The notes beneath the pieces are model-generated. The model had not been told where the DNA came from. It did no database searches and was given only the letters and a program-made list of their open reading frames with translations. Below, piece after piece: positions 1-49,329 of a stretch of 64,000 nucleotides of DNA. Source of the DNA: Dipteris shenzhenensis (taxonomy: Eukaryota); the NCBI GenBank assembly GCA_047967505.1, contig CM106538.1; one strand, given 5' to 3'. Made by a program: the position numbers and the translations under genes. How positions within the stretch are numbered: the first letter of the stretch is position 1; every line of letters begins with the position of its first letter.

Positions 1-178
1 AGCATGCCTGCAAGCTAACCAGGGTATACAAATCATAACAATTTATGTCAGGCCTGGAGAAAAGAAACAGTCCAAACAGATTAAAAAGGGCTTCATTGGG
101 GGCGGGGACAAGGGGGTGTTTGTTATGCACGTCTTCGAGTAAATTTACCAATTTCCACAATAAAAACAACTCTCTTAC

Positions 179-21507: not shown

Positions 21508-23275
21508 TGTGTGTTTTCAAAAAATTAGAACATCAATTATAAGAAGAAAAAATAGTGTATGTCATGGAGCCCCTACTGCTTAAGGTACCTTGCCACCCAC
21601 CCTCCCTGCAATAGTGTGCCCTCTCCCCCCCCCCCTCCCCTCTTCAGTAGGACCTTTATTCCCTTTCCCATAGTGGGAGTGCATGTGTGTATCTTTTCAA
21701 TCTCCTATATTTGTGTGTGTGGACTCCTCGCTCTACCTATACATGTGCTTTCCTCCCTCCTAGATCCCCCAACCAAAGGTAAACCTCTCTTCCCCTCAAG
21801 TAGTATGTGCATGTGTCCTTTGTGTGCCGTCTCCTCCCCTTTTCAAGGGGCTCTCATCCCCCTCTTGTAGTTGGAATGTGTGTGTCTTCCCTCTCTCTTA
21901 TATACGTCCTCTTCCCTGGTGTGTATTTGTGTGCATGGGCCCCTCTCTATTCCTACACATGCTTCCTGCCTTCTAAATCTCCCCCCCACCCCCCTTTCCC
22001 CCCCCCTCTCTCTCTCTCATATAAATAAATAAATATACTATAATTAATAATATATCATATTATATAAAACATATAATATATTGTATATGTATTATATTAT
22101 ACTCTCTCTCTCTCTCTCTATATATGTATATATATATATAATTCTAGAATATATTATATTATGAAATATATATTATATTATAGGTAATATATTTATTTCT
22201 CTCTCTCTTTGTATATATATATATATACATATATACTATAGTATATATTATATTAGAGGAGAGAGAGGGGGAGAGAATATATCATATACTATAATGTATT
22301 ATAATATTATCTATATATATATATTATATTATTATATATATATAATAAAAGATATTATATAATATTATATATATGTGTAATATTTATATATTTTCTCGTC
22401 CCTTTCTCACACTCTCTCTCATGTCTCTCGCACTTTTTTCTCTATCTCTCTCTCTCTACACTATATATATATATCATACATGCATATAATTCTATAATAT
22501 ATTATATTATGAAATAGATATAATATATTTTAGATAATTTATAATATATATGTATATATACTATATTATAGATAATATATTTATTTCTCTCTCTCTCTCT
22601 CTTTATGTATATATATATATATATTATATTAGAGGAGTGAATATATATTATATACTATAATATATTATAATATAATCTATATATATACTATATATATAAT
22701 AAAATATACTATATAATATTATATATATGTATAATATTTATATATTATCTCGTCCCTCTCTCACTCTCTCTCGTGTCTCTCTCTTGTGTGTTTTCAAAAA
22801 GTTAGAACATCAATTATAAGAAGAAAAAATAGTGTATGTCATAGAACCCCTGCATCCTTAAGGTACCTGGCCACCCACCCTCCCTGCAATAGTGTGAGTG
22901 TGCCATCTCGCCCCCCCCTCCCCTCTTCAGTAGGACCTCTATTCCCTTTCCCATAGTGGGAGTGCATGTGTGTATCTTTTTAGTCTCCTATATTTGTGTG
23001 TGCGGACTCCTCTCTCTACCTATACATGTGCTTTTCTCCCTCCTAAATCACCCAACCAAAGGTAAACCTCTCTTCCCCTCAAGTAGTATGTGAATGTATC
23101 CCATAGTCAATGTGTGCCCCCCCCCTTTTCGAGGGACTCTCATCCCCCTCTTGTAATTGGAATGTATATGTCTTCCCTCTCTCTTATATACGTCCTCTTC
23201 CCTAGTGTATATTTGTGTGCTTGGGCCCCTCTCTATCCCTACACATGTTTCCTGCCTTCTAGATCTCCCCCCTTG

Positions 23276-23322
<47 letters not shown>

Positions 23323-23427
23323 ATATAAATACATAAATAAATAAAAATACTATAATTAATAATATATCATATTATATAAAACATAATATATATTGTATAT
23401 GTACAATATATAATGTATTATATTATA

Positions 23428-23479
<52 letters not shown>

Positions 23480-24245
23480 CTAGAATATATTATATTATGA
23501 AATAGATATTATATATTTTCAATAAATTATAATACATATGTATATATATTGTAATATAGATAATGTATTTATTTCTCTCTCTCTCTCTGTATATATATAC
23601 ATATATATTATAGTATATATTATATTAAAGGAGAGAGAGGGGGAGAGAATATATATCATATACTATAATATATTATAATATAATCTATATATAGATATAT
23701 AGTATATTATTATATATATATAATAAAAGATATTATATAATATTATATATACATGCATAATATTTATATATTATCTTGTCCCTTTCTCACTCTCCCTCTC
23801 TCGTGTCTCTTGCACTTCTCTCTTTATCTCTCTCTCTCTACACTATATATATATATATATCATACATACATATAATTCTATAATATATTATATTATGAAA
23901 TAGATATAATATATTTTAGATAATTTATAATATATTATAATATATATGTATATATATTATATTATAGATAATATACTTATTTCTCTCTCTCTGTATGTAT
24001 ATATATATATATATATTATAGTATATATTATATTAGAGGAGAGAATATATATTATAATATAATCTATATATAGATATATACTATATATATATAATGAAAT
24101 ATATTATATATATATATATGTATATATGTATAATATTTATATATTATCTTGTCCTTCTCTCGCTCTCTCTCTCGTGTCTCTCGTGCTTCTCTCTTTATCT
24201 CTTTCTCTCTACACTATATATACATACATATATATATATATATAA

Positions 24246-24836: not shown

Positions 24837-25836
24837 TGTTACCTAGAAAAGAAATTAGGACAAGAGGCTAGACACTAAGCATGGTGACGCTCTAGGGCCA
24901 TAGAGGAAAGGAGAACGTGAGGGCAAAACATTATCATGGGTGGGGAAAAGGGATTAGAAGGGGAGGGAATGAAGAGGGAGACTATGGCACAAGGGGAAAG
25001 GGAGAGGGGAAAGAGAGCCATGTACATGATGGGAGGAGGAATGTAAAGATCGAGACATCAAGGGAAGAGGGTCATGCTTTATTTGAAAGGAAGGGAAGGG
25101 GGAAATCAAAGTACTAGCTAGGTGGCTTTACAAGAATGAGTGTGTCTCATCAAGGAATAGCCCCCTCCTTTTATAGCCAAGAGAGGGGGTCTCTCCCAAT
25201 AAATGCATCCTCCCACATGCATGGTGTGTGTGGAAGAGTCTCCCATGTGGGCTAGGTGGATACACACTCTCAATTGTGTGCGATAACGCTTGGCCACATT
25301 TTTCCACATATATCAACTCCCATATCCCAAGTCTATGATACTCCCTTGGTCTCTTCCCAATTTTATAATACATTAAAACATCTAGGAGGACAAGTGGAGG
25401 GTTGGCTCAAGGAATCCTGCCACCTCATCCTACTTTCCCCATTATTTAACTTGCATTCTTGGACCTTCTATACCTCCCCCACATGGGCCTATCCTATATG
25501 GAGGGAATAACGCAATATTATATCCATCTCCACCTTTTTTATATTACTTCTCCCATGGACTTTGGGCCATATCTCACTAATGCAGGCATGGGACCGCCTA
25601 GGTGGAGGGGTGGCACATGGAGGAGCCATGCCACCTTAACATTTTATAATATTACTACCATGGATTATGTACAACACACCTTATGGGTCCTCTTATGTGG
25701 AAGGGTGGCACATGGTCATGCCCTACCACCTTAACCCTAGGCCCAATGCACTCCATATTTTATTATACTATTGCCACACATACAAGCACACACTCATATT
25801 TATGCCTTTTTACTTTGGTCAAATTTATCCATAATA
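24837..25836 (-). repeat. 3' LTR of the Gypsy element
   Basis: Direct repeat of 32845-33842. Preceded on the minus strand by a G-rich PPT (poly-C at ~25840-25851 on plus) and ends in ...GGTAACA. Confidence 0.9.
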
Positions 25837-27408
25837 GTTCCCCCCCCCCCCAGGCAGGGAATGCACAACATTTCCATGCCTAGGTCCACCACGCACAAAG
25901 AAGGGCTTGAGGTAACGCTTGTTGATCACCTTCTTGCCATATGGCTCATGTAGCTCCTGAACTTGTATAGACCCATTGCTATGTTCCTTGATGACTTTGT
26001 ATGGACCGGTCCACAGTGGAAGGAACTTCTTATCCATTTGGTGGTCCAATCTATTATCAAAGCATAGCACGACATCCCCCTCAGCAAAGTGTCTCCCATC
26101 CCTTACGAATCATAGCATCCAAGTGGGCCTTTTGTCGATTCTTTTGAATCTTTGTTTGATGTAGGGCAAGGTGTTGGGTTTCATCTAGCTTCTCAAGTTG
26201 CACAAATCTGGCCTCTACATGTTCATCTTCTATCATCCTGTATTCTTGTGCCAATCTCAATGCCGAATCTCTATCTCTAGTGGTAAAACGACCTCAGTAC
26301 CGTACACCAACTCAAAAGGAGTGTGACCTGTAGACGTTTTATGAGTGATGTTGTAAGCCCATACGGCTTCTATGACCTTCTGATCCCATTGGCTCCTATT
26401 CCCTGTAGCCATTTTTTGCATGGTTTTACAAAGGAGGCCATTGGTCCGCTCCGTTTGACCCATGGATGCTGGATAATAGATGCTAGAAGTGCGATGATCA
26501 ATACCCATGCGATCCATGAGCAATTCCACTGCTTCATTTAAGAATGGACTCCCATGGTCAAATACTATTTCCATGGGTGTCCCAAACCTTGTGCGGATAC
26601 ATTCAAATATGAAATTTGAAACTGCCTTACCATTTGCAGCGGGGAGGGCGATAGCTTCAGCCCACTTAGTGACATACTGAGTGGCTACCAAAAGATACTT
26701 CTTTTTGCGGGCAGTCATGGGCAAGGGCTTGACAAAATCTATTCCCCACTTTTGAAACGGATGGATGGACATCACTGGGTGATGTTGCCTAGGATGCAAA
26801 TCCTTCCTACCAAAGAATTGGCATGGTTCACAAGTTTTGCAATGCATAGTGACATCCTTGAACAAAGTCGGCCAATAGTACCCATCATCTAAAATCTTCT
26901 TAGTTGTATAGTCATTGGCATAGTGGCCTCCACAAAATCCATTATGATAATGCTTCAATACCTTAGGTACTTCATCTACATCAATGGCCCATCTTAGTAC
27001 CCCATCCATGCCTTGACGGTACAACACCCCATCAAAGAGGGTGTAATGCCTACTATCTCTGCGGATCTTTTTTCTCTCATAGCTAGTACTTTCTGGAGGA
27101 AAAGAGAAAGCAGTCAAAAACTTGTAGATACTACCATACCATGGATTGCCAACTTCTATGGCCAGCACTAGGGTTACATCAAGACACTCCTCTAAATCAA
27201 TCAAAGCATTCTTCAAGTTGGAACAACCCCCTTTTACAATTTTGAAAGAAAAATCATATTCTTGTAAAACTGCCAACCATTTGGCCAACCGGCCCATGGG
27301 ATTTGGTGATTGAAGAACCTGCTTTGCAAGACCAGTGCTAGTGAGTATAATGAAGGACTTTCTGGCCACATAATGCTTAAATTTCTCAATGTAGAACACC
27401 AAAGACAA
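25825..27408 (-). pseudogene. Gypsy degenerate RNase H C-terminus plus integrase (HHCC, core, GPY)
   Basis: ORF 26257-27408 contains H..GH..YYWPTLFKD..C..CQ, PFQKWGIDF and GQTERTN; WTGPY appears in 25825-26070. Confidence 0.9.
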
Positions 27409-27685
27409 GGCATGTTTGTCAGCCTCAGAGTAGCATCATTTCAGTTTCGAGCAATTGTCAAGAAGCAAATTGAACAAGATACATGAACCGATCCTCCCCT
27501 TGCTGGAGAAGAATACCTGCCAGAGTGTGCTCACCAAACCTAGGATTGATATAGAAAGTCTTTGATCAATCTGGATTGCATAGAATGGGTTCTGAAGCCA
27601 GAGCACTCTTGATTTGTACAAACCCATGATCACAATCCTCATCCCAAGAGAAATCAACTCCATCTTTTAATAGCATAGTAATGGG

Positions 27686-28861
27686 TCACGTCAAAGTAGC
27701 ATATTGATCAATGAAGTGGTGATAGTATCCTGCTAGATTGACAAATGAGCATACCTGACATTTGGTTGTTGGTGGGGAGAGCTTAAGGATGGCTTCTACC
27801 TTCTCGGGGTCAGGCTTGATGCCCTCAGATGAGACAACATGTCCCAGTAACCTCCCTTGAGTGGCTCCAATGGTGCATTTCTTAGGGTTGAGACTGCCAT
27901 TTGCATCATTGACCCTTTGGAAGGCCAACCTAACCTTCATGATGTGCTCCTTACGTGACAAGAATATACATAAATCATCTAAAAACATCTCCAAGAAATC
28001 CCCCAAATAAGGAGCAAACACCATCTGCATAAATCTTTGAAAGGGAGCAGGAGTATTGGTGAGGCCAAATGGCATTACTTTTAATGCAAATGTCCCCCAG
28101 GGTGTGGCAAATGTGGTTTTAAGCACATCTTCTTCGGCAATTCTGATTTGATAAAACCCGGAGTAACCATCATAGAAGGTATACATCTCATGACCACTTA
28201 CCTTCTCAAGAATGAGGTCTTGAAAGGGAAGAGGATGATGGTCCCTCTTGGTGGCTGCATTGAGTTTCTTATAGTCGATGCAGACTCGCCGCTTCTTGTT
28301 TTTCTTTGGGGTGACTACCACTAGTGAAACCCATTCAGTATTGTGAACCGGAACAATAAACCCAGCTTCTACAAGTTTCTGCAACTCTGAGTGCAAAGCA
28401 TCAGTCTGCAGGGGCCCTAATCTCCAATACTTCTGAGCCATAGGCTTTGCATCAGGCTTCAGCTCTATCTTGTGCTCTATGGCAGTCACATGGCAAAGGT
28501 GGCGGTAGCTAGTTGCGAAAAGGTCAGGGAAATCTTTGAACATTTCTAGGAATTTGTCTTTCTCACTTGGAGTGAGGTCTGGGGAAAGTATAAATTCAAG
28601 CTGTTGAGGACTAGCTATTCTTTTTTTTGTAGGTGGCAGGGTTGGAGACACCCCCATCATGTAAACTTCCTCATCTGAGGACTCCTCCCCCCCGTCTGAT
28701 CCTTTCATTGATTCAGACACCAAGGATGAGAGAGTATCACTGTCTTGCTCCTCTTCTTCTTCTGGTTTCGTGGCACCTAGTTGCACCGGGATCTTCTCCT
28801 TAGAAGCACCAAAAGACATGTGTCTTGTCTTCCAATAGCTGACTGCATCACTCTTTCTCAA
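27686..28861 (-). pseudogene. Gypsy reverse transcriptase
   Basis: CIDYKKLNAAT, DGYSGFYQI, MPFGLTN, FLDD, LLGHVVS. Confidence 0.92.
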
Positions 28862-29150
28862 CCATGGTCTCCCGAGTATGGCTGGGTAACTTCCTGCCTG
28901 TATCTTCGATGTCCACTACATAGAAATTGACGGTGGTGGTCAATCCATTGACAGTGATGGGCAAATCCTCAATGACTCCCAGGGTGGCGAGTCGTTGACC
29001 ATCTGCTACCTTGATTTGAGTGGAGGAACACTTTGTGCATTTCAAATTCAATTTCTTTATGATTCGAGGCACCATGATATTACATGCAGCTCCCCCATCA
29101 ACACACACATTTTTTACATGACAATTATCTATGATGACATCTACTGTATG
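28848..29150 (-). pseudogene. Gypsy aspartic protease
   Basis: VDGGAACNIM ... ADG motif. Confidence 0.8.
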
Positions 29151-29290
29151 TGGGTGCTGATCAATTTCTTCAGAGATAGAAGAGACCTCTCATACCTTTC
29201 CCTTTTTCTTGCTCCTCCTTGTTGATAGCCCTTGCTGCAGCTCATGTCTCACCTTAGGGCTTAATGCTATTAGTTAAGGGAGCGTGATGC

Positions 29291-30487
29291 TCAAAGAATG
29301 ATGAGCAAGGTCCTAAATGACCGAATAGTCTTCTTGCCCTGAGCCGATGGGGGCAACCACTTACTCCTACGAGATCTTTTAGTCTTCTCTATTGGCGGGT
29401 CTGCCATCTCAGCATCTGAGGGCTCTGAGAAGGACACCTTCTTCTTGGGGCAGCCTAGTCCATGGTTTGGAGAGGGGTCTGAGGTGGTATGACTTCTTTT
29501 CCCAAAGTCAAGGATCTCTACATCAGAATGCTCAGTGCTAGATTCACTTAGAAGATTCACCCTTGGAATATTGGGACCTTCCGTGTGATAATGACCCTTT
29601 TGGTGGCACTCGTAGCATATAACATTAGCACGGTCTCTTGGAAGGTGGTTGGCTTGATTTCTGATGCCCACCATCTCAAGCCGAATATCAATTCAGGGCC
29701 TTGGCTAGGTCATTGACTCCGGGTTCCTTAGCAGGAGGGGCCGAGGGAGTAGGAACGAGGGGGCTCATGGGCAAGGCTTGGGAAATCTTCTAGATGGAGG
29801 TTGAGGATATACTCCTTGTTGAGGGTAAGCATCTAAGGGAGGACCATAAATTTGAGGTGGAGGCGGTGGATACATCCCTGATGAGGGGTGGGGGTATGCC
29901 CCTAAGTTAGACCCCCTAGGTTGTTGTTGCAAGAATTGAGGGGGTTGCGGAGGGACAATCGTCTTCTTTGAAGCGGGGTCAGACTGAACTTTATCAAACT
30001 TTTAAGCAATCTCATGTGCTAGCACCATAGTTTCTCGATTCTCCCATTTAAGCTTGAGACGGAATTCATCACTTGCTCCTGCTACAAGGTAGCCCAACAC
30101 ATGCTGTCATTCTAGCTCGAAATCTGGCATTGTCCTCCTGCGTGGCAATTAAATGGTCCAAGAGCACGGCCGCTCGATCCACATATCGACGTGCCATCTC
30201 ACCTTCTGACTGCTCAAGTTTGCCACCTATAGGTACACATTCTCCGGCTCCTCTTCTTTGCCGAAATGATCAATCATCACTGTTGTCAACCTTGGCCAGC
30301 TTTGGCAAGCATCTTTGGCCTGCTTCTCATACCACACTTGAGCCAAACCCTCTAGAAATGTGGGAAGAACCAACAGCCATCTATCTTAAGTAAGAAAGTT
30401 GAGAGAAACACAACGGCACTTAAAGGCCACAAGATACTCATTTGGATTTTCTTCAACCCATCCACAAAACACGGGCATATCAGCCAT
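29291..30487 (-). pseudogene. Gypsy gag (disrupted)
   Basis: From ATG 30487: MADMPVFCGWVEENPNEYL...FLEGLAQVWYE...SWPRLTTVMIDHF...KLEQSEGE..RYVDR, then a Pro-rich linker and CYECHQKGH zinc knuckle. Confidence 0.75.
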
Positions 30488-30989
30488 GCTTGGAAAATGG
30501 AAAAGAGAGAGATGAAATGAGGCTTATCTATGGGCAAACAATGGAAAGAGGTAGCTTGAACTGAAAATCAGGTGAAGATACATCCACAAAGCACACATAG
30601 GCAGGGTAGGGTGTGACTGGTGTATTGTGAAATACTACATGCGAAGAATCTTCAGCATAGAATAGCTCATAGACAATCTTAAAAGGACCAACCCTCATGA
30701 TATCACATCCATCTTTACAAGCGAGGGTTAGAGACACGGCGCTGCATGAGGTTCATCAAGGCAAACAAGAATGCCATGACAAATGTCAACAGTTGGAGAG
30801 TTTGCACATCACCTTCAGCTTCTTCCAGTTCTTGTAATCGCCATGCTATTTCTTCAAGGGGTGTGCGGTCTGGCATCCTTCTTTTGAGCAATGTCCTTGA
30901 GGACCTTTTTGATGATCTTTTGAAGTCGGTAAACTCGTATCAAATATGCCCAACACTTAGTTTCATGATGACCACAACCTTTGCGTTCC

Positions 30990-31455
30990 TTACAAACGAT
31001 CACCCTCCTTCGTGGCTTGCAGCTTTGTTTGGGTGGTGCTTCCACTCGCGTCATACGTGATTGAAGTACAAGCTTCACGTGCCAAGAAATCAGCAACTAT
31101 ATTTTGAGCTCGAGGGATATGCTAAATTTTTACCTCTTCAAATTGTTGGCATAGTTCCAAATGCTTGTTGATGTCGTGGAACCAAGCCTTTGCTCTGCAC
31201 CTTCCACCTTCCACTAACTTGTTCACACACGAGTTGAGAATCTCCTTGCACCTCAAGTTGCTTGATGCGATGTTCTTGTGCCTTTTGTAGCCCAAAAATG
31301 AGTGACGAGTACTCAGCTTGGTTACAAGTACTTGCTGGTGCAAACTTGCTATAACAATACACCTCACCCCCTAGTGAAGTGAGCTTCACACCCACACCAG
31401 CAACCTTGGTCGAAGGTTTGTATGCGCCATCAAATTGGAGGATCCAAGATGTCAT
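30990..31455 (-). pseudogene. Archaeal-type RNase HI (aRH) as a stand-alone ORF upstream of gag
   Basis: MTSWILQFDGA...NQAEY...VQGDSQLV...HIPRAQNIVADFLA; one frameshift near 31160 and one in-frame TAG. Confidence 0.88.
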
Positions 31456-32295
31456 CACACCAAGACTAAAATCCGAACATCCCAAGTTTCTCAGTAGTCC
31501 AAGATAGGTAGAAGGAGAGGGTGGGGAGAATTCAATACTTGAGCCAAATGTTTAGCACCAAATAAACTTGCAATCCTTTTGTTGATAGTTTATCTTTATA
31601 CCAAAAAGAATTACAATTTGAAGCTCAAAATGAGGCACAAAGAGTTGATTAGGTACAAAGGGATTCCTTGGTCAAAACATTACCAGCTATAGCTGAGCCC
31701 TAGAAACCTTTGTAGTGAGATTGAGAATAACCCATTCAAGACGAGCTTATCCACAAGAATTAATAAGCAGATGCACCAAATCTCCCCCCAAGCTTGGGGA
31801 GCATCCCACCCTTCAAAGAAGGACACCCTTTTAATTACCTCCAAAGCAGCAAGTAGCTCGATCACCGCACAATGAGTAGAATTAAAATCAAAGTTCTCCT
31901 AGCGTATCACTAGTTCTTCACCTTGAATCATCCACGGTGTATCATCCCACCCATCGTCTCCTTGAGCAATGCATTGTACAATCAATTATTGTAGATCGAC
32001 ATGAAGATCAAGAAAGAGATCTCGCCCATTGGTAGCCGTAAGGCATGGAGGACCAGGCACCAAATCCTTAAACTCGTCGAGAAGTGACATAAATATCCAC
32101 CCTCCTCGTGTGGCGTGCATCCGTGAAGTGAACTTGGAAAAGTTCCAAATCGGTGATCTAGTAGGAGATGTGAATAGAGCACATGAAATGAAATACTTTT
32201 GCTTTTTATAGCAAGAGGAAACTCCCCACGGTTAGAGAGTTACAGTTCCCGAGATTTCAATATATAGCAAAATTCATTACATTTTCATCACTTCC

Positions 32296-32366
32296 TACTT
32301 GCTAGCCCAATGATAAGTCTCCCTTTTGTGAAGGGGGAGGTCTTGGGTTCAAATCCCACTCTTTAA
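32296..32366 (+). ncRNA. tRNA-like (GUG/His anticodon) module lacking an acceptor stem; not a functional tRNA
   Basis: A-box-like TAGCCCAATGATAAG, arm CCCTT-TTGTGAA-GGGGG, variable loop AGGTC and T-arm TTGGG-TTCAAAT-CCCAC, in canonical tRNA spacing. Confidence 0.6.
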
Positions 32367-32820
32367 TAAAAAGAGAGGAGAGGAGAGGAGGAGAAGAGAA
32401 AGAGGAGAGGAAGAAGAAGATAAGAGAGGGGGGCACAGGATCTGTTACAGTTTTGCAGAAACCCAAAAAAATTGTCCACGACCAGAAGACACAGGAGCCT
32501 AAAAAACCATCACAATCTATCTACGATGCGCACGGGTGTACACAGTGGATGCACGTAGGAGCTCAGAGGGAGCACAGATGTTACAGGTCTACAATTACGA
32601 CCGGTACGAGCAGAAGATTCGCCAACCAGAATACACACAGGAACCGTGAGCAGAAAGCAGGCAGACTGGAAGTGCAGAAGTAGGGAGGTTTTGTAGCCGT
32701 AGAGACAAGGAAGGCACACAGTTTAGAGGTGCAAAAGTAGAGAACTACGCACGGAAGAGGCCGTAGAGCCGCACCCAGTCGTAGGAGTAACAGATTTTAC
32801 ACCACTAGCCATGGAGATTT

Positions 32821-32840
32821 CGATCCCAATAGCCACACCA
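32821..32840 (-). promoter_or_regulatory. Primer binding site, probably tRNA-His
   Basis: TGGTGTGGCTATTGGGATCG lies 4 nt after the 5' LTR. It resembles the complement of the plant tRNA-His 3' end (...CCCAGCAGCCACACCA, recalled, not verified). Confidence 0.7.
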
Positions 32841-32844
32841 TTTC

Positions 32845-33842
32845 TATTACCTAGAAAAGAAATTAGGACAAGAGGTTAGACACTAAGCATGGCAATGCTC
32901 TAGGGCCATAGAGAAAGGAGAACGTGAGGGCGAAACGTTATCATGGGTGGGGAAAAGGGATTAGAAGGGGAGGGAATGAAGAGGGAGACTATGGCACAAG
33001 GGGAAAGGGAGAGGGGAAAGAGAAGCATGTACATGATGGGAGGAGGAATGTAAAGATCGAGACATCAAGGGAAGAGGATCATGCTTTATTTGAAAGGAAG
33101 GGAAGGGGGAAATCAAAGTACTAGCTAGGTGGCTTTACAAGAATGAGTGTGTCTCATCAAGGAATAGCCCCCTCCTTTTATAGCCAAGAGAGGGGGTCTC
33201 TCCCAATAAATGCATCCTCCCACATGCATGGTGTGTGTGGAAGAGTCTTCCATGTGGGCTAGGCAGATACACACTCTCAATTGTGTGCGATAAGGCTTGG
33301 CCACATTTTTCCACATATATCAACTCCCATATCCCAAGTCTATGATACTCCCTTGGTCTCTTCCCAATTTTATAATACGTTCAAACATCTAGGAGGACAA
33401 GTGGAGGGTTGGCACAAGGAATCTTGCCACCTCATCCTACTTTCCCCATTATTTAACTTGCATTCTTGGACCTTCTATACCTCCCCCACATGGGCCTATG
33501 CTATATGGAGGGAATAACGCAATATAATATCCATCTCCACCTTTTTTATATTACTTCTCCCATGGACTTTGGGCAATATCTCACTAATGCAGGCATGGGA
33601 CCGCCTAGGTGGAGGGGTGGCACATGGAGGAGCCATGCCACCTTAACATTTTATAATATTACTACCATGGATTATGTGCAACACACCTTATGGGTCCTCT
33701 TACGTGGAAGGGTGGCACATGTCATGCCCTGCCACCTCCACCCTGGTCCCAATGCACTCCATATTTTATTATACTATTGCCACAAATACAAGCACACACT
33801 CATATTTATGCCTTTTTACTTTGGTCAAATTTATCCATAACA
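32845..33842 (-). repeat. 5' LTR of the Gypsy element
   Basis: Starts TGTTATGG on the minus strand; direct repeat of 24837-25836. Confidence 0.9.
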
Positions 33843-34097
33843 GTTCCCCCCCCCCCAGGCAGGGAATGCATAACATTTCCATGCCTGGGTCCACCACGCA
33901 CAAAGAAGGGCTTGAGGTAACACTTGTTGATCACCTTCTTGCCATATGGCTCATGCAGCTCTTGAACTTGTACAGACCCATTGCTACGTTCCTTGATGAC
34001 TTTGTATGGACCGGTCCACAATGGAAGGAACTTCTTATCCATTTGGTGGTCCAATCTAGTATCAAAGCATAGCACAACGTCCCCCTCAGCAAAGTGT
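33843..34097 (-). mobile_element. Extra PPT plus integrase C-terminus in front of the 5' LTR
   Basis: Near-identical to 25837-26092 (LPLWTGPY); ends abruptly in (GT)n. Confidence 0.88.
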
Positions 34098-34259: not shown

Positions 34260-37200
34260 AACCTAGAGGGTAAGACCACATGGTGGGGATTAAGCCCACC
34301 ATGTGGAACTTAACTATTATTGAGAGCTGGGTAAGGACAAACTGGGTGAGGAAAGGGCTTATGGCAATTACTATAAGATTCCTTAGAAAGGGATTCTTTA
34401 TCTTCCTCTTTGAGAAACTTGGCATGGCTGCTAGTGCCTTACAGTATGGTCTTTCGACTATCAGGCATCAACCTTTGTATCTTGAAAGGTGGTTCCATGA
34501 CTTCTCACCTAATCATCCAAGATCTACTATGACCCCTGTCTAGGTAGAATTCCTTGATCTTCCTCTCTCCCTTTGCAATCAATTATATTCCTTATGGAGT
34601 GGTCTAGGAGAGGTGGTTGATGTTGAGAACCAAATCTTTGTTAACCTAGAGGTAATCCTCAGGTATGTATTAAGATGGATATTGTAGAGAGCCACCAAGC
34701 ACTCTTGTAGCTCTTAATAGGAATGGAAGTGTGTTTAGAGAGCAAAAACTCTTGTACAAAAATCTTCCAAGTTCTTGCTTCCTTTGTGGTTGACTAGCCA
34801 TGCTGTTAAAAATTGCCTTCAGAAGAGGGCTAAACCTAGGCCTGGTGCTGCCCCTACCCCCAAAGAAGCAAGAGTCATAGAAAAGTGGTTACCCAAACCT
34901 CCTAGCTCTGCAGCTAAGTCTAGTCCTCAAGTGTGAATTCCTCCAATCCTAAAACATTTGTTGACAAAGTTAAGGAAAGGATGCCCACTACAATCCTCTC
35001 AAAAAATGTTTTTGATGCTCTAGTTGACAAAGAAACTGAGGATTGGATTAAGAAGAACCAAAATGATGACATAGACATTCAAGTTTGAAGCAGGTTGGTC
35101 TAAGGACTTTTAAGATGACATTAATAGAGATAATGCCATGACCAAAATAAGGTTAAGTAAGGAAGAGTCTGAAGGTGAGCATGATGCTCTTAATGCAGGA
35201 GAAAAGCATCAATAGGATGCTCTTAATTTAGGTCTCAAGCCAAGGTTTCCTCACCTCAAGTGAACAACCTAAACCCTAGGGCTAAAAAGGGGCAAAGAAA
35301 GAATGGTTAATAAATAGATTTCTTTTTTGTCTCTATATGTTAGAGGGCTTACAGACCCTGGTAGAGGTTATGAATTGACTCACTAGTTCAGAGCTAACAA
35401 CCTTTCCACTATTTTTATTGCTTTACAAGAGGTCAAAGTTACTAGGATAACTCTAGAAAGTAGATTGAAATATGTGGATAAAAGAAGGGTTTGGTCTTTC
35501 ACAAACCATGAGGAAGGTAAAGGAGGAAATGCTATTGGGGTTTTGTCTCATTATAGCAATGGTATCACCAGTGTTGTACTAGATGCTAATAATAGATGGC
35601 TCTTGCTTTAATGTTCCATTGAAGAGCAGGACTTCAACTTCATTTCTATTTATGCTTCAAACAATATTCAGGACAAAAAGGCCACTTGGGATTCTCTGAT
35701 GGACATAGATGGCAATGCATTTACTCCAGGAGACTTCAATATGGTTGAAGAGAGTGCTTACAGATGGCTTGGGAAAGGGACAATCACATCAAAGGAGGTG
35801 AGCAGTCAGCATGGGAAGATTTCAAAGAGTCTCTATGCCTTGTGGATTCTTTTGTCAAAGGCACTTTTACTTGGTGCAACTGTCAAAAACAGATGTGAGT
35901 AGGAGGGAGGCCAGACTAGATAGAATCTATGTCTCTCAGGATCTACTTAGTCGATTTAGTTTTATTAAAAGTTAGACTTTCTCTTCTCTCTGCCTCTTTA
36001 ACCACAAACTTGTGCTTCTTACTTGTGACTTTGGACTACGTCAGGAGTCTTCTTCTTGGTTCAAAGCTGATCCCAAGCTTTTTGACCTAAAAAGTGTTCA
36101 AGAGAGTGTCATGAATGTCTAGCAGAGTGCCTTTACTAATGGTAAAAATGTTTATGATGCTTGGATTACAATAGTTGAGCTTACTCAAGAATTACTAAAA
36201 AAGGCTAGAAGACACAGGGCTAAAATTAGTGCTAGAAGAATGGACAGGTTGCAGACTACAATTAGCAGCCTAGAATTGCTTGCCAGCACGTAAGGGGATC
36301 CTCGGGCTCAAGCTGGTCTTTTGATAAAAAGAAAGGAGGTCAGGAGGCAAGAGCAGATTATCCTCAATCATTCTTAAGTGTACTTCAAGGACTGGTAGGT
36401 AGGTAAGGTGGACAAACCCTCTGGGGAATACTTTAAACTGATAAGAAGAAAAAGAGCAAATGAAGAAGTACCACTACTTAGAAAGGTAGATAACACTCTT
36501 GTTTCTTCCTCTAAAGATAATGTGGAGCTTATTAATTTACATTTCAAACCTATCTACTATCCTCCATAATAATCCCTGATGATAAGGTTAACAGAGCCAG
36601 GGACATTTGCAGACTTACTAGAGAGAGGACTATGCACAACTTTGACAATGTCTACCTTGAAAAACCCCTCTCCTTGGAGGAGCTCAAGGAAGCAGTCAAA
36701 GTAATGGCAAATGGCAAAAAACCTGGTGAAGACGGACTTCCTATAGAATTTTATAAGTTGTTTTGGGAAATAGTTGGACCTTACCTTTTGCTTCTCTTGT
36801 AGGAGAGTGTCAGAGATAAGCCCTTCCTCCTCATGTTAATGGTAATTTCATCAAGCTGATACCTAAGGATGGGGATAAAGAGGAGCTCAAAAACTAGAGA
36901 CCTCTTACTATGCTTAACTGTACCTGAAAGAATTTTGCCAAAGCACTTGCTCTCAGAATTCAAAAAAGAATGGATTCTTGGATCGTTCAAGAGCAAAAAG
37001 GCTTCACTAAAGGAAGACACTTATTAGAGGCCATAATCCACATTTGGGAGGGCTGTGAGTATGCAAAAAGAGACTAAGCATGATATTTTCTCTCGAGGTT
37101 GATCTTGACAAGGCATATGACAGGTTAGACTGGGACTTTGTTATTCAAGCTCTCACAGACATGGGCCTTGGCTCTCAATATATTTCTTTCATAAGAATTC

Positions 37201-39500
37201 TACTTACTAATGCCTCAGCTAAGATATGTGTAAATAGAGCTATGAGCCAATCCTTTTCTCTTAAAAGATCCATTAGATGATAGGGCTGTGCCATAACTCC
37301 TCTTTAATTTGTATAGCTATGTTGACTCTTTGGGGTGGCTTCTCCAGAGCTGGAGACATGAAAGGTATAGAGGTCTATTCTGGAAAGTAGTTGATGTGCC
37401 AACAGTTTGCAGCTGACACCAATCTGACACCAAGGAACAATGAGCAGGATATCAAAAGGGTAATGGAATCTTCAGACACTTTTTTTTGCAAGGCCTCATG
37501 ATCCAAGATCAATCACACTAAGGCTAGATATGCCACTCTAAGAGGAGAAGAGAAAGGAGTCCTAGAGGAACTTGGAGGTCACAAAATCAAGCAAGGTACT
37601 ATTTTTAGACTACTTGGGGATACCTCTGGGGTTTGACATTTCAATGAAGCAGAGGTGGGACTGGATCATGGTTAGATTCTAGAAAAAGGTAGATAAATGG
37701 AGAGGATTCTAGGCTAATTTAGGTGGTAGAAGGCTTGTCCTTAATCATTGCATTTATCCCATTGCTATTTTTAACCTAACATGTCGGTCCTCCTCCAAGA
37801 CAGTTCTTGATAGATTCATTAGAATTTTTAGATCTTTCCTCTGGGGTGGAATTTTTAGATCTTTCCTCTGGGGTGAGAATAAAAAGAAAGTTAGATGGAG
37901 CTTATGTATAAAACCTAAAGATGAAGGTGGACTAGGGATCATAGACATAGAACTAGCTGCTAGAAAGCTCTCGGCCACCTAGGTCATTAAAGCTATTCTT
38001 TATCCTTAGGGGATTCGGCTCAGCTTCTTCTCAGACATGTCAGCCACCTTAGACCTCTGAGAGCCCTCAATTGGAAAATCTATCCCACCCTATTTGCTAT
38101 CTGTAACCCTGAGCCCTACAAGGCTAAAGGGAACCAACTCTTGCAGTCCTTATGGAGGGCTTTTGAGGAAAGCAAATGTCAAATTGTGTTCTCAGGAAAA
38201 GGGGCTTTTATGTCTTTAGACAGCATACGGGTCCCAACAATCTTCAGAAGCTCTGTTCTCACTAATGAGGATTTCTTAATGGCTTGCTAATTATTCAAGA
38301 AAGGTTTGTAGAGTTGGGGACAGCTTTGGAACAGAGAAGAATATAGATGGAAGACTTGGGCCGAGATAAGAAGGGAATTTGCCCTCAATAACCAACATCA
38401 AGGTCTAGTCATGAATAGAGTTCAGCTGTGGGAAGGAGACACACAGTGGAAGGGTGGAACATTCCTGGTGTATAGTAGGGAGTTTAGTTGGATTTGGAGC
38501 TCCTCTTTTTTCCTATCCCTACTCCTGCTAGGGACATTGATGATCTTTTTAAAGTTTTAAATACTAGATGGAATCTGCATGACTCAAAATTCAAAAGGAA
38601 GGCCATATTCAACTCCACTTGATTGAAAAGTGTCCTTGATAAAATGTCTATTCTTTTATGGATGATCTTACACAAGGCTGCTTGGAAAAATGTTAGAGGT
38701 CTTAGGATTGGCAAGAGTGATGGGAAATGCATGAGATGCTCTGGCTTTAATGAAGACATCTTTCATTTCTTTATTGCTTGTCCCCAAGCTAGAAGAGTTT
38801 GGAAGATTATACAGGTAGAAATAAGTGAACCTATCAATAGGAAAGCCATCCTTTTAGGTGATGCTGGCAAAGACAAAGCAAGACATTTGGACACAAATAA
38901 GAGCCAATGCTCTTTGGTACATTTGGGTGTGCAAGAATAATTTCCAATTTAATCTTATTGATCTTTCTACTAACATTTGTTTCCTTGCTTGGTGGGACAG
39001 GAAAAAAGGAGAATTGAAGAGTTGCTTGCCAAGTACAAAGAAGGCCATACCAAAATCAGTAATGACTTGGATGCACACATGCAAAATTATCTTATGGCCA
39101 GACACAATATAGTTCTTCAAGATGCAGCCCACGTTGATGTTGCTAGTACCAATCTGTATGCTTCTAGGTGTTTTCCCAAGAAAGAGGACTTGCACTCTAG
39201 CCCTTCTTTTGATGCTGATGATTCTTCCTTGTCTAAAGACACATCTTCTTTTGATGACACCTCTGATGACGACCTAGATTTGGACTCTGCTGACACCTCT
39301 GATGGCTCTTCTCCTTGTTATTATAGACTAATATATTCTACACCTCTGGTTCTATCCTTTGTTTCCCCCTTTGGGTGTTTCTCTACTGATGACTATGTTC
39401 CTCTATACACCTTTTTGGATCAAGGTGGACTATGTACAAAGATATGACTGTTAAATTTAATATTATGTAAAACCTTTTCTCTGCTCAAAAAACTAAAATC
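34260..39500 (+). mobile_element. Decayed, 5'-truncated L1-clade LINE (ORF1 and ORF2)
   Basis: ORF1 has a DUF4283-like region (IRFLRKGFFIFLF..PLYLERW) and a CFLCG..H..C knuckle. ORF2 has APE motifs (VRGL, LQE, GDFN), RT motifs (KPGEDGLPIEFYK, DLDKAYDRLDW, QFAADT, PKDEGGLG) and zf-RVT (CMRC..EDIFHFFIAC). A-rich end near 39490; many stops. Confidence 0.88.
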
Positions 39501-42590: not shown

Positions 42591-42942
42591 TGTTGAGATA
42601 TCGAGCTCCACTCGCGATATGCCAGGGTGACCGTTGTGTATTTATGTCACCGATTTGTTAGCTGGAGATGCGGTTGGTACACCGCCCACGAATAATAGCT
42701 GGATGACAGCTATCCTTATCTACACTAGTTCGTGGCTCAGTTAGTATGCCACCTTAGTTAGTTGAGTTTGGTTTGAGACCCACATATAGGGTTCTTCTAT
42801 TTCTTTGTACTAGAGTTCTTTTGGCTTTCACAACTAAGAAGAGGAAAACTGTTTTCGGCCTCCACCCTTGTGTGTATTCCCCCATTGTGCATGTGAGAAA
42901 GCCGCAAGTGAGACTTCTTCCCTCTCTCCCACAATCTTCACA
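42591..42942 (+). repeat. Copia 5' LTR
   Basis: TGTTGAGATA...CTTCACA, direct repeat of 47818-48167. Confidence 0.95.
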
Positions 42943-43487
42943 TGGTATCAGAGCCTTGTTCGTGGTAAGGAGCTCAAGAAAGCAAGCCAAGTTCGTGGTG
43001 TCCTGGTAAGAGGACCAGTGTTGCTTTCTTATTTCGAGTTTGGGAGCAAATCTCTGCAGGTAGCACAGCCAGAAGTGCAGGAGTGCACTGTTTTAGATTG
43101 AGACGCCCTTCGCGGTGTGGCGAGAGTGCAGTATATGCTGCGGGTGTGGGCGAAGCCCTCAATGACTTTATTTTTCTGATTTGAGGCCGTTTCGGGGCCC
43201 GTTTTGAAGGCGGAAGTTCTTCGCAGGCACTCAGAAAAAGGCCCTGTTTTTTGCTGTGCGACCACTGCACGGCTAGTTGGTGGAAAGGTGCCTCAGAAAT
43301 TGCATCGTATGCCTATGTGCAGAGATATTGGGAGTTACAGATTCATGCCTGTTGCCTGTTGATGCAAAATTGTCACTAGGAAGTGACTGTGTGGTGAAAT
43401 ACCACTTTTGTCAGTTTTGCAGATCTGCCCGTGTGAGGCAAAAAGCTGTGTTTTTTGCAGTGACAGAATATTTTGCAGTGTTTTGTA

Positions 43488-46400
43488 ATGGCATCTGATT
43501 CTCTTTCACAGATTGTCACTGAAAAGCTTGACAAGAACAACTTCCAGGCATGGAAGTTTAGAATGACGAATTTCTTGATGGGAAAAGGCTATTGGGAATT
43601 CATTACAGGAAATGAAGAAGAACCTGTTCTTCCTAATGTTCCTAGTCAACAGGAAATGCAGGCATTCAAAGGATGGCATGAGAGAGCCAGGAAAGTTATG
43701 TATTGGCTGTCTATCAGTATTTCAGACTCCATGATTGTGCATATTCAGGATGCAAATACGCCAAAGGAGGCATCGGATACTTTAGCAAAAATGTACAGCA
43801 CAAATACGCAAGCCAGGAAAATGCAACTCAAACAGGAGTTGCACAATGTGCAGAGAGAAAACATGAGCATCAATGACTACCACATGAAGGTGAAGAAAAT
43901 TGCGGATGCACTTGCTTCCATTGGGTCGCCAGTGGATGATGACGATTTGGTTTCTGTGACCTTGAATGGTCTAGGAAAGGATTATGCACAGTTCCAGACA
44001 TCCATTGCCGTCCGTGAAAATTTTCCTGATTTTGAGGAGTTGATTGCTCTTCTAATTTCTGAAGAGCAGAGAAATGGGGGTGCATCTTCTTCAGCAGGAA
44101 CTTCAAAAGAAAGTGTCTTCTACTCAAATGCTGGCAGAGGTAGAGGCAGAGGTAGAGGAGGCCGATCTGCAGGCCGTGGTAGAAATTAGAATATGCAGCA
44201 AATGCAAGAAAACCAGTCCTATGCAGGAGGACGTGGTAACTCTAGAGGCAGGGGGAGCCAAAGAGGCCGTGGTGGATGGCAGAGAGGCCAAAATGCAAAC
44301 AGCAATGTTGAATGCTACTATTGTGGCAAAATGGGTCATATGGCTAAGGACTGCTATAAAAAGCAGAATGACATTATGAGTGGAAAATTGCAGCAAGGCA
44401 ATTATGCATCTTCAAGCAGGCAGGGTGATGATAGAAATGAGCATCTATTTATGGTGCAGCATATGACCAATTCTGTGACAAGTGCAGAAGAACAAAATGA
44501 TGTGTGGTATGTTGACTCAGGTGCGTCAAACCACATGACAGGTCATGCAGAATGGATGCAAGATGCAAGGAAAATGGAAAAACCAAGATTTGTGGAGACG
44601 GCGGGTGATGATACTGCACATCCTATTGTGCAGATTGGCAAAATTCCTTCGTCTATGCAGGATGGGAAAAAGAAATACTTGTCTGATGTATTTCATGTCC
44701 CGAACATCACCAAGAACCTGGTTTCTGTTGGTCAGATGGTTGAGCAGGGCTTGTAGGTCAGATTTAATCCTCATGGATGCTTTGTTGAGGATATGAAAAA
44801 TAATGGTCGCTTGATAGCAAAAGGAAAGAAGAAGGGCAGGATGTTTACGTTGGATGCGGACATGCCTGAATTGAGTGCAACAATGTTTGCACATGGGACC
44901 GGCGTAGTTGCAGATATTGATATCTGGCACAAACGCATTGGTCATGTTAATATACAGCGACTTAAATCAATGCAAGCCCAAAATATTGTTGCAGGATTGC
45001 CTAAATTCAAGGTTGCAGAAATGCACAAGGTTTGTGAAGCCTGTTAATTTGGGAAACAGGCAAGGAAACCTTTTCCTAGGCATGTTCAAGAGAGTAAAAA
45101 GCCATTGGAATTAATCCACTCTGATGTGTGGACTACAAAAGCTGCATCTATTGGAGGCTGTCACTATTTTGTCACATTTATTGATGACTTCAGCAGAAAA
45201 CTGTGGGTGTATTTTATGAAAAAGAAAAGTGAAGTGTTTGGGCACTTCAAAGCTTTCAAAGCTATGGTTGAAAAAGAAACAGGCCTGCAAATAAAATGCC
45301 TAAGGTCAGATGGAGGGGGAGAGTACCTCTCAAATGAGTTTGCAAGGTTCTTGCAGGAGCATGGTATAAAGCAGCAATATTCATGCAGTCATACCCCACA
45401 GCAAAATGGAATTACAGAAAGAAAAAACAGGCATATTGGAGAGGTGTCTCGGGCTATGCTAAATGAAAAAGATCTACCAGATTATTATTGGGTTGAAGCA
45501 GTTGCTACAGCAGTCTATATAATGAACAGGACTCCCACTGCAGCAATACATGGCATGACGCCAGAGGAGATGTATACTGGTAGGAAACCAGATATTTCTC
45601 ATTTGAAGATTTTTGGTTGCATTGCTTATGTCCATGTGCCAGATGAGTTGAGGTCCAAGTTGGATCCAAAAGCTAAGAAGTGCGTCTTTATTGGTTATTC
45701 TCTGCACAGCAGAAAGGGTATAGATGCTATAACCCTTCTACATGTAAGTTCACAGTGAGCAGAGATGTTGTTTTTGATGAGATGAGCAGCTGGTATAAAC
45801 CAGTAAATGTGATGATTGATGTAGATGCACAAAATGGTAATGCTGCACAGAATGCACAGCAGCAATCACAAAATATCAGTGGACCTGGAGTGTCCTCTAC
45901 CAGTGGTTCACATACTTCGCCATGGACAGGCAGATTGAGATCAGGAGAATCCCCTCAAAGCAATGCAGATAGTGGTACGCAGGTATCACGAAAAGGAAAA
46001 GAGAAGGTAGATCAGCCCATGTTTGATGTGAATGCAGGTCACTCTTATGTGGATGGTGAATCCAGTGGCTCAGAACAGAGCATTGATGATGAGTTGGGTA
46101 TTCCTTCTGTTGTTACACCTGGAGTAAGGAAGACCAGGGATGTTTTGAGAGCACCGGGAAGTGAGCCTATTTTGCGCACGTCTACCAGGGTTAGGTATCC
46201 TGTGGATAGGCTGAAATATGATGGATTTACAGCCATTCACTATGCCTATATGGTCAAAGTGATACAGGAACCAGAACCCACTTCTTTTGAGCAAGCCATG
46301 GGAAATGAAAAATGGGAGAAAGCCATGGATGAAGAAATGGATGCCTTGGATGCTAATGCTACATGGGAATTGGTGCCTTTGCCTAAAGGCAAGAATGCAA

Positions 46401-47920
46401 TTGGCTGTAAGTGGGTTTATAAGATCAAGCACAATGCAGATGGTTCTGTGAATAGATACAAGGCAAGATTAGTTGTCAAGGGGTATGCACAGACATATGG
46501 CATTGATTATGAAGAAACTTTCAGCCCGGTTGCAAGGATGGCAACCGTAAGAGCATCCATTGCTATGGCTGCATTAAAGGGATGGTCTTTACATCAGATG
46601 GATGTAAAGAATGCCTTCTTGCATGGTGATTTGCAAGAAGAGGTCTTTATGGAGCAGCCAGCAGGTTATGTTCATGCTATTCATCCTGAGTTTGTTTGCA
46701 GGTTGAGGAAAGCCTTGTATGGCTTGAAGCAAGCACCTAGAGCATGGTCTGACAAGATAGGACAGTATATTGTCACTATTGGCTTTCAGATTTCCAAGGT
46801 AGATTTCTCACTCTATGTGAGAAAAACAGAGAAAGGGATTATGCTGCTGGTCATTTATGTTGATGATTTGATCATCACAGGTGATAGTGATGAAGATATC
46901 CTTCATGTGAAAATGCTATTGAGGCAGAAGTTTGAGATGAAGGATTTGGGAGAGCTGCGTTATTTCTTGGGCATTGAGGTGATTAGATCACCAAGTGGGA
47001 TACAGCTCTTACAGAGGCAGTATGGATTGGACATGCTGTCCAAATATGGGATGACAGGCTGTAAGCCTATTTCAGTTCCTTTGGAGCAGAATGTGAAGCT
47101 GAGCACAGATGTAGGTGAGCTTCTGGAAGACCCTACTATGTACAGACGCATAGTAGGAAGTTTGATTTACATGACTATTACCACGCCAGATTTGAGCTAT
47201 GCTGTTGGGTTGGTAAGTCAGTTCATGCAGGCTCCAAGGAAACCGCATTTGGATGCGGCTAGACACATACTCAGGTATGTGAAGTCCACATTGCAGTATG
47301 GACTATTTTATGAGGCTGGGGTTCAGATACAGTTGCATGGATACACTGATGCTGATTGGGCTGGTAGCATTTCAGATAGACGATCTACCAGTGGATATGT
47401 GTTCTCTTTTGGGAGTGCTGCAGTCACTTGGAGCAGCAAGAAACAGCCTACAGTTGCCTTGTCAAGCACAAAGGCTGAGTACAGGGGTGCAGCAATGGCT
47501 GCATGTGAGGTAGCTTGGTTGCATAAGCTACTCTATGATATGCATCAGTCTACAGATGGGCCAGTTGTCATTTATTGTGACAACATGAGTAGTATACATT
47601 TGGCAAAGAACCCAGTCTTTCATGCCAGAACAAAGCACATTGAGGTGCATTATCACTATGTGCGGGAGAAGGTTTTACTAGGTCTCATTGATCTAGTTTA
47701 TGTCAGCACAGAGGATCAGGTAGCTGACATCTTCACGAAAGCATTGGGCGCAGAGAAGCTGCGCAAGTTCAGAGACCTGCTTGGTGTGCAGGATTTGGGA
47801 TTGAGCTCGAGGGGGAGTGTTGAGATATCGAGCTCCACTCGCGATGCCAGGGTGACCGTTATGTATTTATGTCACCGATTTGTTAGCTGGAGATGCGGTT
47901 GGTACACCGCCCACGAATAA
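43488..47920 (+). pseudogene. Copia gag-pol polyprotein (gag, CCHC, PR, INT, RT, RH)
   Basis: CYYCGKMGHMAKDC, WYVDSGASNH, IHSDVW..RSDGGGEY, YKARLV, YVDD, YTDADWAG, KHIEV. Three stops and one frameshift (~45705). Confidence 0.95.
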
Positions 47921-48167
47921 TAGCTGGATGACAGCTATCCTTATCTACACTAGTTCGTGGCTCAGTTAGTATGCCACCTTAGTTAGTTGAGTTTGATTTG
48001 AGACCCACATATAGGGTTCTTCTATTTCTTTGTACTAGAGTTCTTTTGGCTTTCACAACTAAGAAGAGGAAAACTGTTTTCAGCCTCCACCCTTGTGTGT
48101 ATTCCCCCATTGTGCATGTGAGAAAGCCACAAGTGAGACTCCTTCCCTCTCTCCCACAATCTTCACA
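47818..48167 (+). repeat. Copia 3' LTR
   Basis: Direct repeat of the 5' LTR, following the PPT. Confidence 0.95.
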
Positions 48168-49329
48168 TCTTTTCTCCATGCACTCTTGCCTTAGGCACAT
48201 GTTCATGTTGTTCAAGCTTCTCAACGTTTGTCGACATAGCTGTGACAATGTTTCATGCAACTTATTTGTCATCGCGCTTTGTAAGTGATGGATTTCATCA
48301 AAATGAGCTTCATTTTCATAATAAAGCTTCTACATTTGCTCCTTCAGTGTCTCTAGTGGTCCCACCAATGCATCTGAGAGAATCTCGTGTCACCCCGCAA
48401 CATCCTTCCGAGGCTTCATGCCCTCTTCATGCATTTCTCGCAGTATAAGCAAAAACCTACTTGGAGTCCTTTCACAAAGTGTAGATATACCATCATTGCG
48501 AAGTATAAAGTCACATCTCCAGGGTGGGGCTCTTTTCCACATACATAATGTATATGTCATGTGCTCAAGCTCGGATATTTGGATGTCGACAATTAATGAT
48601 TTTCCATCTTCCATGCTTCTCCATGGTGGGGCTCTTTGCCTCCACCTTATTTGGCTTCCATCTACTGCTAGATTGCTCCTATGCATCTAGTGGCCAGATT
48701 GATAATACATCGTCATTGGATACCAAGTTCTTGATATCCTTTCAATGAATGCTAGTAGGTTTGCCCATGTGATATTCATTAGATAGTGTTTGGTGGTGCA
48801 ATGGAAATTCTTTGCAGGCACTCATAGCATGATTAAACTCCTCCTTTTTTGAGCCTCCTCTCGTGTAAGTGGTCTCTTGCCTACATCTCTAATAATCGAT
48901 GCAAAGTCTAAATTTTTACAACCTTAACAACTACCTAGAGACTTCCCATCTCTGTGTTTCTTGTGACTAGTGAAAGACTACCTATAGTAAGTTTTGCTAG
49001 CAATTTCACAAAATCTACTGAAAAAGACTAAGACACTGCATAAGAGCCTCTTCAAAGAGTACTTCTACTAAAACCATAAACGTTGTGCAAACCAAGAGCT
49101 CTCTCTTAACTCATCCCTGAGAGATAGCTCCAATGAAATATATCAGCATCAACAACATACCTCCTCACCAATCACACATGTTTGTTGCCTTGCACACCAT
49201 CCTGATCCCTTCTCTTATAAATCCTTAAATTCTCTTGGCATGACTTTGATTGCCTTGTTTTAGAATGGAGCAGAAATTCAAAAGACTAGATCAATTCTTC
49301 TTTCCATAGATGAATTTTTTATGAATGCC

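Follow-up and report, generated by a model that had tools for sequence, protein, structure and literature searches.

In the fern Dipteris shenzhenensis an archaeal-type RNase H (aRNH) is encoded ahead of gag in an LTR retrotransposon, and this gene is probably an integral 5′ open reading frame (ORF) of a Tat-related Ty3/gypsy family with the layout known as structure #4, in which it would be the sole competent RNase H and would most likely act in trans. The analysed window is a stretch of 64,000 nucleotides of contig CM106538.1 (assembly GCA_047967505.1), and the element in it would read LTR, primer-binding site (PBS), leader, aRNH, a spacer of 0.5 kb, gag, protease (PR), reverse transcriptase (RT), a dead native RNase H, integrase (INT) and LTR.

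The aRNH gene occupies positions 31455..30990 of the minus strand, with the A of its ATG at 31455 and the final base of its stop codon at 30990. Two pieces of it were matched by Pfam RVT_3 (PF13456), namely 31455-31141 (E 1.1e-15, 58 bits, profile positions 2-88) and 31250-30993 (E 3e-6, 27.6 bits, profile positions 72-123), both above the curated cut-off of 21.6 bits. The frame opened by the ATG reads MTSWILQFDGAY...NQAEYSS...QGDSQLV...RHQQA, and the second frame continues with ...LELCQQFEEVKI, a stop, and HIPRAQNIVADFLAREA...GDRL before the terminal stop; the window copy is broken by one frameshift at about 31160 and by one in-frame stop at 31124-31122. For comparison with other copies, contigs of two DNA runs (X1 and X4) under one organism label were aligned to the window at a likeness of at least 85%. 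At position 31124 all 13 covering contigs (8 from X1 and 5 from X4) carry another letter, and the in-frame stop is therefore private to the window copy.

The motifs of the window copy are LQFDGAY, NQAEYSS, QGDSQLV and HIPRAQNIVADFLA, which include the four carboxylate motifs FDG, AEY, GDS and VAD; their D, E, D and D, aligned with the solved structures 4e19 and 3hst, are taken here to be the catalytic residues of archaeal-type RNase H. The intact 154-aa relative P0001 matched six solved RNases H with E values from 2.8e-17 to 6.8e-10, of which 4e19 was the best (E 2.8e-17), followed by 3hst, 2ehg, 3aly, 3u3g and 4h8k, and in the two alignments printed, with 4e19 and with 3hst, the segments FDGA, NQAEY, RGDSQLV and PR..N..AD of P0001 are aligned. 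The DEDD residues and the C-terminal motif (H/W)(I/V)PR..N..AD are thus common to the window aRNH and to archaeal-type RNase HI (4e19, 2ehg, 3aly and the N-domain of Rv2228c, 3hst); unlike those enzymes, the aRNH of this family is encoded by a retrotransposon, ends in a Thr/Ser-rich tail of 20 residues and lacks any further domain. Enzymatic activity of the protein is predicted from these conserved residues. The initial annotation, which had described an archaeal-type RNase H with its own ATG and the D/E/D/D motifs as a separate, unfused ORF 5′ of gag, was exact as to position and accurate as to motifs and identity, and the gene structure given below agrees with it also on the absence of fusion.

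The element that contains the gene is 9259 nt long. Its LTR pair was found by self-BLAST as a long direct repeat, 24839-26092 and 32847-34097, with 96.57% identity over 1254 columns. Both aRNH and gag-pol are on the minus strand, so that a position upstream of gag means higher coordinates; the 5′ LTR is the upper repeat copy (32847..34097, minus strand, 1251 nt, aligned at both ends) and the 3′ LTR the lower one (24839..26092, minus strand, delimited by self-BLAST and flank alignment). A contig of X4 that stems from a different copy connects 34097 with 26094, the junction between internal region and 3′ LTR, and so confirms the LTR boundary. Both outer flanks consist of (CA)n, for which reason a target-site duplication is unreadable. 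The LTR pair, the PBS-like and polypurine-tract-like stretches described below and the order gag-PR-RT-RNase H-INT characterize the element as Ty3/gypsy, and the aRNH lies inside it, between the PBS-like site (32840) and the start of gag (30487).

A putative primer-binding site, read directly from the sequence, is located at 32819..32840 on the minus strand and consists of TGG... with a complement of a tRNA T-arm and acceptor; 4-6 nt past the end of the upper LTR copy the strand reads TGGTGTGGCTATTGGGATCGAA, similar to what would pair with the 3′ end of a tRNA. In the window itself ARAGORN found no tRNA, and no Rfam match was obtained. The long 5′ leader that follows (31456..32818, minus strand) contains no Pfam family, none of its seven ORFs (proteins 1-6 and 12) giving a match at E ≤ 0.1. 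A tRNA-like T-arm motif, GGGTTCAAATCCC, is seen on the plus strand of the leader at about 32340-32360, beside a CT-rich low-complexity run (window 32120-32420). ARAGORN reports no tRNA there, and the region is skipped in other copies (contig joints 32118>32338, 32241>32336 and others), and it may represent a small insertion present in only some copies.

A spacer of 502 nt (30488..30989, minus strand) separates the stop of aRNH from gag; in this copy it has stops in all three frames, and none of its three ORFs (proteins 7-9) gave a credible Pfam match, the best E value being 0.054. The decayed gag (29291..30487, minus strand) starts at about 30487 with MADMPVF... in the three-frame translation. 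It was recognized with a profile made from the gag regions of seven relatives, which matched the N-terminal part of the capsid at 30484-30227 (i-E 1.6e-16) and a zinc-knuckle remnant at 29659-29570 (i-E 7e-6); the Pfam family Retrotrans_gag matched weakly (E 0.012).

The domains of pol follow on the same minus strand. The aspartic protease (28848..29189), to which the protease region of relatives aligns, matches Pfam Asp_protease_2 with E 8.7e-5 and 23.6 bits, slightly below the cut-off of 24.3, and the reverse transcriptase is encoded in an ORF of 409 aa (27686..28915; RVT_1, E 6.2e-23). The native Ty3/gypsy RNase H (27193..27685; RT_RNaseH, E 2.2e-8) is degenerate, with stops and a frameshift, and is followed by an integrase with zinc-binding, core and C-terminal domains (25825..27192; Integrase_H2C2, E 2.2e-11, and rve, E 2.6e-13). 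Directly 5′ of the 3′ LTR the alignment places a purine-rich tract, AAGGGATGGGAGA (26093..26105, minus strand), which from its composition and place would act as polypurine tract. The LTR begins within the region coding for the C-terminus of integrase: about 89 codons and the pol stop are in the 3′ LTR (25825-26092), and the same end of pol is duplicated in the 5′ LTR (33830-34097, minus strand), whose first approximately 270 nt repeat the integrase coding sequence. The window copy is dead, with an LTR divergence of about 3.4% and with breaks in aRNH, gag and pol, the last two having several stops and frameshifts.

The surroundings of the element are of mixed content. Directly beside its 3′ flank there is an AT-rich repeat block with CT-rich ends (21508-24245), built from units of about 350-400 nt with 74-86% identity in direct and inverted orientation. 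A Ty1/copia element (42591-48168, plus strand) with LTRs of 353 nt that are 98% identical has long open frames with Retrotran_gag_2, Pol_BBD, rve, and RVT_2 in a 747-aa ORF; relative to the Tat-like element it is both younger and less decayed. Further along, a second Ty3/gypsy fragment with RT_RNaseH, Integrase_H2C2 and RVP_2 adjoins a copia element (57935-60373 and 60586-64000, minus strand), the latter with an 842-aa ORF running off the window end; with a mere 27% identity to the Tat-like relatives, this gypsy fragment is of a different lineage. LINE-type sequences are represented by a zf-RVT match at 12951-13139 (minus strand, E 4.8e-5, below cut-off), which is a fragment of ORF2, and by further L1-like ORFs noticed by eye at about 35387-38940 on the plus strand. 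The start of the window (1-3059, minus strand) is occupied by the single host gene that was recognized, which encodes trehalose-phosphate phosphatase in at least eight small exons and runs off the window. Its first large exon (48 residues) is 85% identical to Adiantum capillus-veneris, 83% to A. nelumboides and 75% to Ceratopteris richardii, and over eight exon matches the count of identical residues is 226-259 for the ferns (Adiantum, Ceratopteris), 202 for the best angiosperm and 197 for a liverwort among the 120 matches listed, none of which was named as moss or lycophyte. These similarities and the RT neighbours described below agree with a fern host.

The pol region of the element holds no aRNH. 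The alignment of the relatives' native RNase H stops at 27193, and that of their integrase runs from 27195 to about 25855, with nothing between the two; the in-pol aRNH of these relatives aligns instead to 31449-31150 with 33-37% identity. Among the 30 closest polyproteins the Pfam scan detected RVT_3 in 28 (P0018 and P0034 were without it), and in all 28 carriers it is placed after RT/RT_RNaseH and before integrase where the protein reaches one. An independent aRNH ORF before gag, together with a pol free of aRNH, is the arrangement of structure #4.

The native RNase H of the window element has lost its catalytic residues. At the four columns of the RNase H alignment that are presumably catalytic the window carries R, H, S and N, whereas all six aRNH-less relatives, two of them from Marchantia, carry D, E, D and D, and this invariance supports the choice of columns. 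Eight relatives with aRNH in pol show at these columns S; M, W or L; V, S, I or L; and G, D or N, respectively, which means that three of the four positions are lost, while the fourth keeps D in six of the eight. This agrees with the rule stated in the cited passages of the Tat survey by Biryukov and Ustyantsev (PMC10508981), where every Tat structure with an aRH, wherever this is placed, has a degraded native RNase H, and the degraded native domain beside an aRNH is accordingly a Tat feature of the window element. Since all four catalytic residues are absent from its pol RNase H, the element needs another source of this activity, and the stand-alone enzyme of 154 aa would be the only competent RNase H that it encodes.

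The aRNH is a feature of the whole repeat family. When the first aRNH piece was used as query in a near-length protein search, 17 of 18 candidates matched at E ≤ 1e-3, including two intact ORFs of 154 aa, P0001 with 25 member sequences and P0002 with 8. Both are 87% identical to the window, begin with MTSWILQFDG or MSSWILQFDG and have their C-terminal end point in common with it, and between themselves they share 93% identity over 131 columns; the start Met is common to P0001, P0002, P0003 and P0005. At 87-93% identity such intact ORFs could simply be young. A search of 1.84 billion representatives returned 14423 proteins at E ≤ 1e-3, and among the 150 matches listed only P0003 (91%) and P0009 (85%) were more than 50% identical to the window aRNH.

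Contigs of X1 and X4 cover all 30 bins of 26093-34097. Their summed depth, which is not a copy number, was 51.5, 89.7 and 52.4 (X1) and 260, 487 and 262 (X4) in the aRNH bins and 44, 49 and 40 (X1) and 184, 184 and 187 (X4) in the RT/RNase H bins (27161-27961). The aRNH is thus covered as deeply as pol and, in view also of the intact members from the protein search, is multi-copy and belongs to the repeat family. One part of the leader, 32234-32767, is poorly common to other copies, with depths of 12.3 and 5.9 (X1) and 54.9 and 14.5 (X4) against 40-90 (X1) and 184-487 (X4) outside it, and several joints skip 87-219 nt of leader. The linkage of aRNH to the element in other copies rests on this summed depth and, on the leader side only, on P0009, which aligns to 31680-31255 and so takes in 225 nt of leader ahead of the ORF. 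Of the carriers listed for the family none is recorded as RNA, and two RNA runs with the same species label gave 0 (X17) and 3 (X18) reads, too few to gauge expression.

Two other identities of the gene were rejected. In plant L1 elements ORF2 ends in an aRNH, which follows the endonuclease, RT and zf-RVT domains. No remnants of these three domains were found at E ≤ 0.1 in the 10 same-strand ORFs of the leader, the spacer and the gag start, which argues against an L1 fragment, and the ATG shared by the four relatives named above was a further ground for rejection. A host RNase H1 was rejected on the grounds that P0001 has in Pfam only PF13456 and PF00075, with no N-terminal hybrid-binding domain (HBD; Cauli_VI), and that the ORF is multi-copy. 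With its nearest relative outside the family less than 50% identical, it does not represent the single-copy capture of a host gene that the initial annotation had named as a refuting outcome.

The relationship of the element was analysed with an RT tree of 105 rows, built by a quick IQ-TREE method with SH-aLRT support only and with no published named Tat/Athila reference among the rows. The sister group of the window, with SH-aLRT 96, is a clade of 48 rows (99), in which aRNH follows RT in 31 rows and precedes it in none and which includes many Adiantum nelumboides proteins. The next outgroup is formed by P0051, P0053 and P0059, and farther out there are a clade of 28 rows with aRNH before RT and groups without aRNH, including Marchantia. 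The label Tat for the window element rests on these aRNH-bearing RT neighbours rather than on named clusters, and according to the cited part of the Tat survey all aRH-bearing plant LTR retrotransposons fall in Tat (PMC10508981). The three outgroup sequences are ENA/Logan contigs of 5-8 kb. Both P0051 and P0059 extend far enough beyond RT for an in-pol aRNH to show and have none, and their native RNase H is degenerate; P0053 ends too soon past RT for aRNH to be judged and is absent from the RNase H alignment. All three may be further pre-capsid (structure #4) elements in other organisms.

The aRNH sequence itself gives a less definite picture. Relatives outside the family are 40-50% identical (best 49.6%), the 25 nearest being proteins with multiple RVT_3, HBD-bearing RNase H1, bacterial fusions and Tat pol fragments, and the in-pol aRNHs of the RT relatives are 36-41% identical to the window aRNH. 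A tree of 219 aRNH rows gave the family no supported partner, and the authors of the Tat survey likewise call the aRH phylogeny unresolved in the passage cited (PMC10508981). In a quick tree of a 79-row subsample (65 rows taken at random within groups and 14 named rows forced in) the family was placed next to the in-pol clade of fern Tat elements with SH-aLRT 80; however, a search constrained to place it among the 45 non-Tat rows yielded a tree better by 28.8 log-likelihood units, with p-AU 0.835. The phylogenetic check foreseen in the initial annotation thus came out divided, favouring the fern Tat in-pol side in the quick tree and the non-Tat placement in the constrained comparison, and the aRNH tree ties the gene to no group, Tat aRNHs included.

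The 5′ aRNH layout is reportedly also a discovery of Wang et al. 2021 (New Phytol), who are cited as its co-discoverers. In the cited passages Biryukov and Ustyantsev (2023, PMC10508981) define five Tat structures and assign to structure #4 the clusters Tat B (mosses) and Tat C (the clubmoss Selaginella tamariscina), and Prokopeva et al. (2026, PMC13468544) name this structure “pre-capsid”. Its aRNH ORF before gag and its degraded native RNase H are those of the window element, which was compared with Tat B and Tat C by layout and which differs from them in its fern host. Since the layout is already in print, the main claim of the initial annotation, that of a new architecture, falls, and it does so by a refuting condition which that annotation had itself set, a domain order already catalogued. 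Its accompanying statement, that aRH is known only within pol or at its end, holds for the cited part of the 2015 paper, where aRNH is only in-pol or C-terminal (PMC4408406), and fails against the two later ones (PMC10508981, PMC13468544). An extra cistron ahead of gag is found in angiosperm Tat/Ogre elements too, but in the description cited these upstream ORFs have PMD or Tr28-type domains or no known function (PMC4408406), while that of the window encodes an RNase H.

For ferns the relevant passages of both surveys report only the in-pol “retroviral” structure #1, and for each non-seed plant group except lycophytes they give one Tat structure (PMC10508981, PMC13468544). The structure #1 elements of Adiantum nelumboides (P0019-P0066) are the nearest named RT relatives of the window, with 52-59% RT identity, and form its RT sister clade. 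The native RNase H is degenerate in both, but in structure #1 the aRNH stands between native RNase H and integrase, whereas in the window these two abut at the junction 27193/27195 and the aRNH is 5′ of gag. Full-text literature searches, which did not extend to the supplementary tables of PMC10508981, found no report of the 5′ aRNH layout in ferns, and the window element is probably the first fern example of this catalogued layout, beside the fern in-pol elements. A wider proposal is advanced only tentatively, and the chances are somewhat against it: that ferns hold an unreported pre-capsid Tat lineage, sister to fern structure #1, whose first-cistron aRNH is the sole competent RNase H, free and acting in trans. 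On one reading of such a lineage it would be an ancient moss/clubmoss-type lineage that survives in ferns; on the other, aRNH would have left pol a second time.

Supply of the enzyme in trans is considered most likely because the pol RNase H is dead while the 5′ ORF keeps its DEDD residues and constant boundaries in diverged copies. The aRNH protein would be made from the first cistron, would then reach the particle or the replication complex and would there cleave RNA/DNA hybrids for reverse transcription, and the gag-pol cistron downstream would be translated by reinitiation or leaky scanning, or from a spliced RNA. No packaging signal is evident in the free protein of 17 kDa.

Instead of this, splicing or recoding might join aRNH to Gag or Pol, so that it is delivered in a polyprotein, or splicing might remove aRNH from the gag-pol mRNA. 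Splicing occurs in Tat/Ogre elements, and with gag placed 502 nt past an ORF of 154 codons on one RNA, ribosomes that scan would reach it only with difficulty. How a separate aRH ORF could function is a question raised, in the passage cited, by the describers of structure #4 themselves (PMC10508981). However, the intact family members stop at the same place, the spacer of the window copy is closed in every frame, and no joint or spliced read of this type was seen, though the RNA reads were too few to weigh on this; joining or removal by these means is regarded as unlikely, although it survives better than the other alternatives. Still less probable is that the 5′ ORF is a relic or passenger which contributes nothing to retrotransposition, with RNase H obtained from the host or from other elements. 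The window copy of aRNH is indeed broken, and structure #4 is rare according to the cited part of the survey (PMC10508981), but the loss of all four catalytic residues from the native domain makes another source necessary, and diverged copies such as P0001 and P0002 keep identical boundaries and the four catalytic motifs. A chance juxtaposition private to the window copy, by a nested plant L1 fragment or a captured host RNase H gene, is highly improbable, since the L1-type fragments in the window, such as the zf-RVT match, and an aRNH tree compatible with grouping among non-Tat RNases H have to be set against a multi-copy ORF with constant boundaries, the missing L1 domains around it and the lack of a hybrid-binding domain, the best HBD-bearing relative being 46% identical and the best one outside the family 49.6%.

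With the aRNH read as an integral 5′ ORF of the element, a fern family of this kind would qualify the picture of ferns as holding only the in-pol structure, and it bears on the question of a single versus a repeated origin of structure #4. The intact natural ORFs of 154 aa, P0001 and P0002, offer material for studying how an RNase H encoded outside pol serves reverse transcription.
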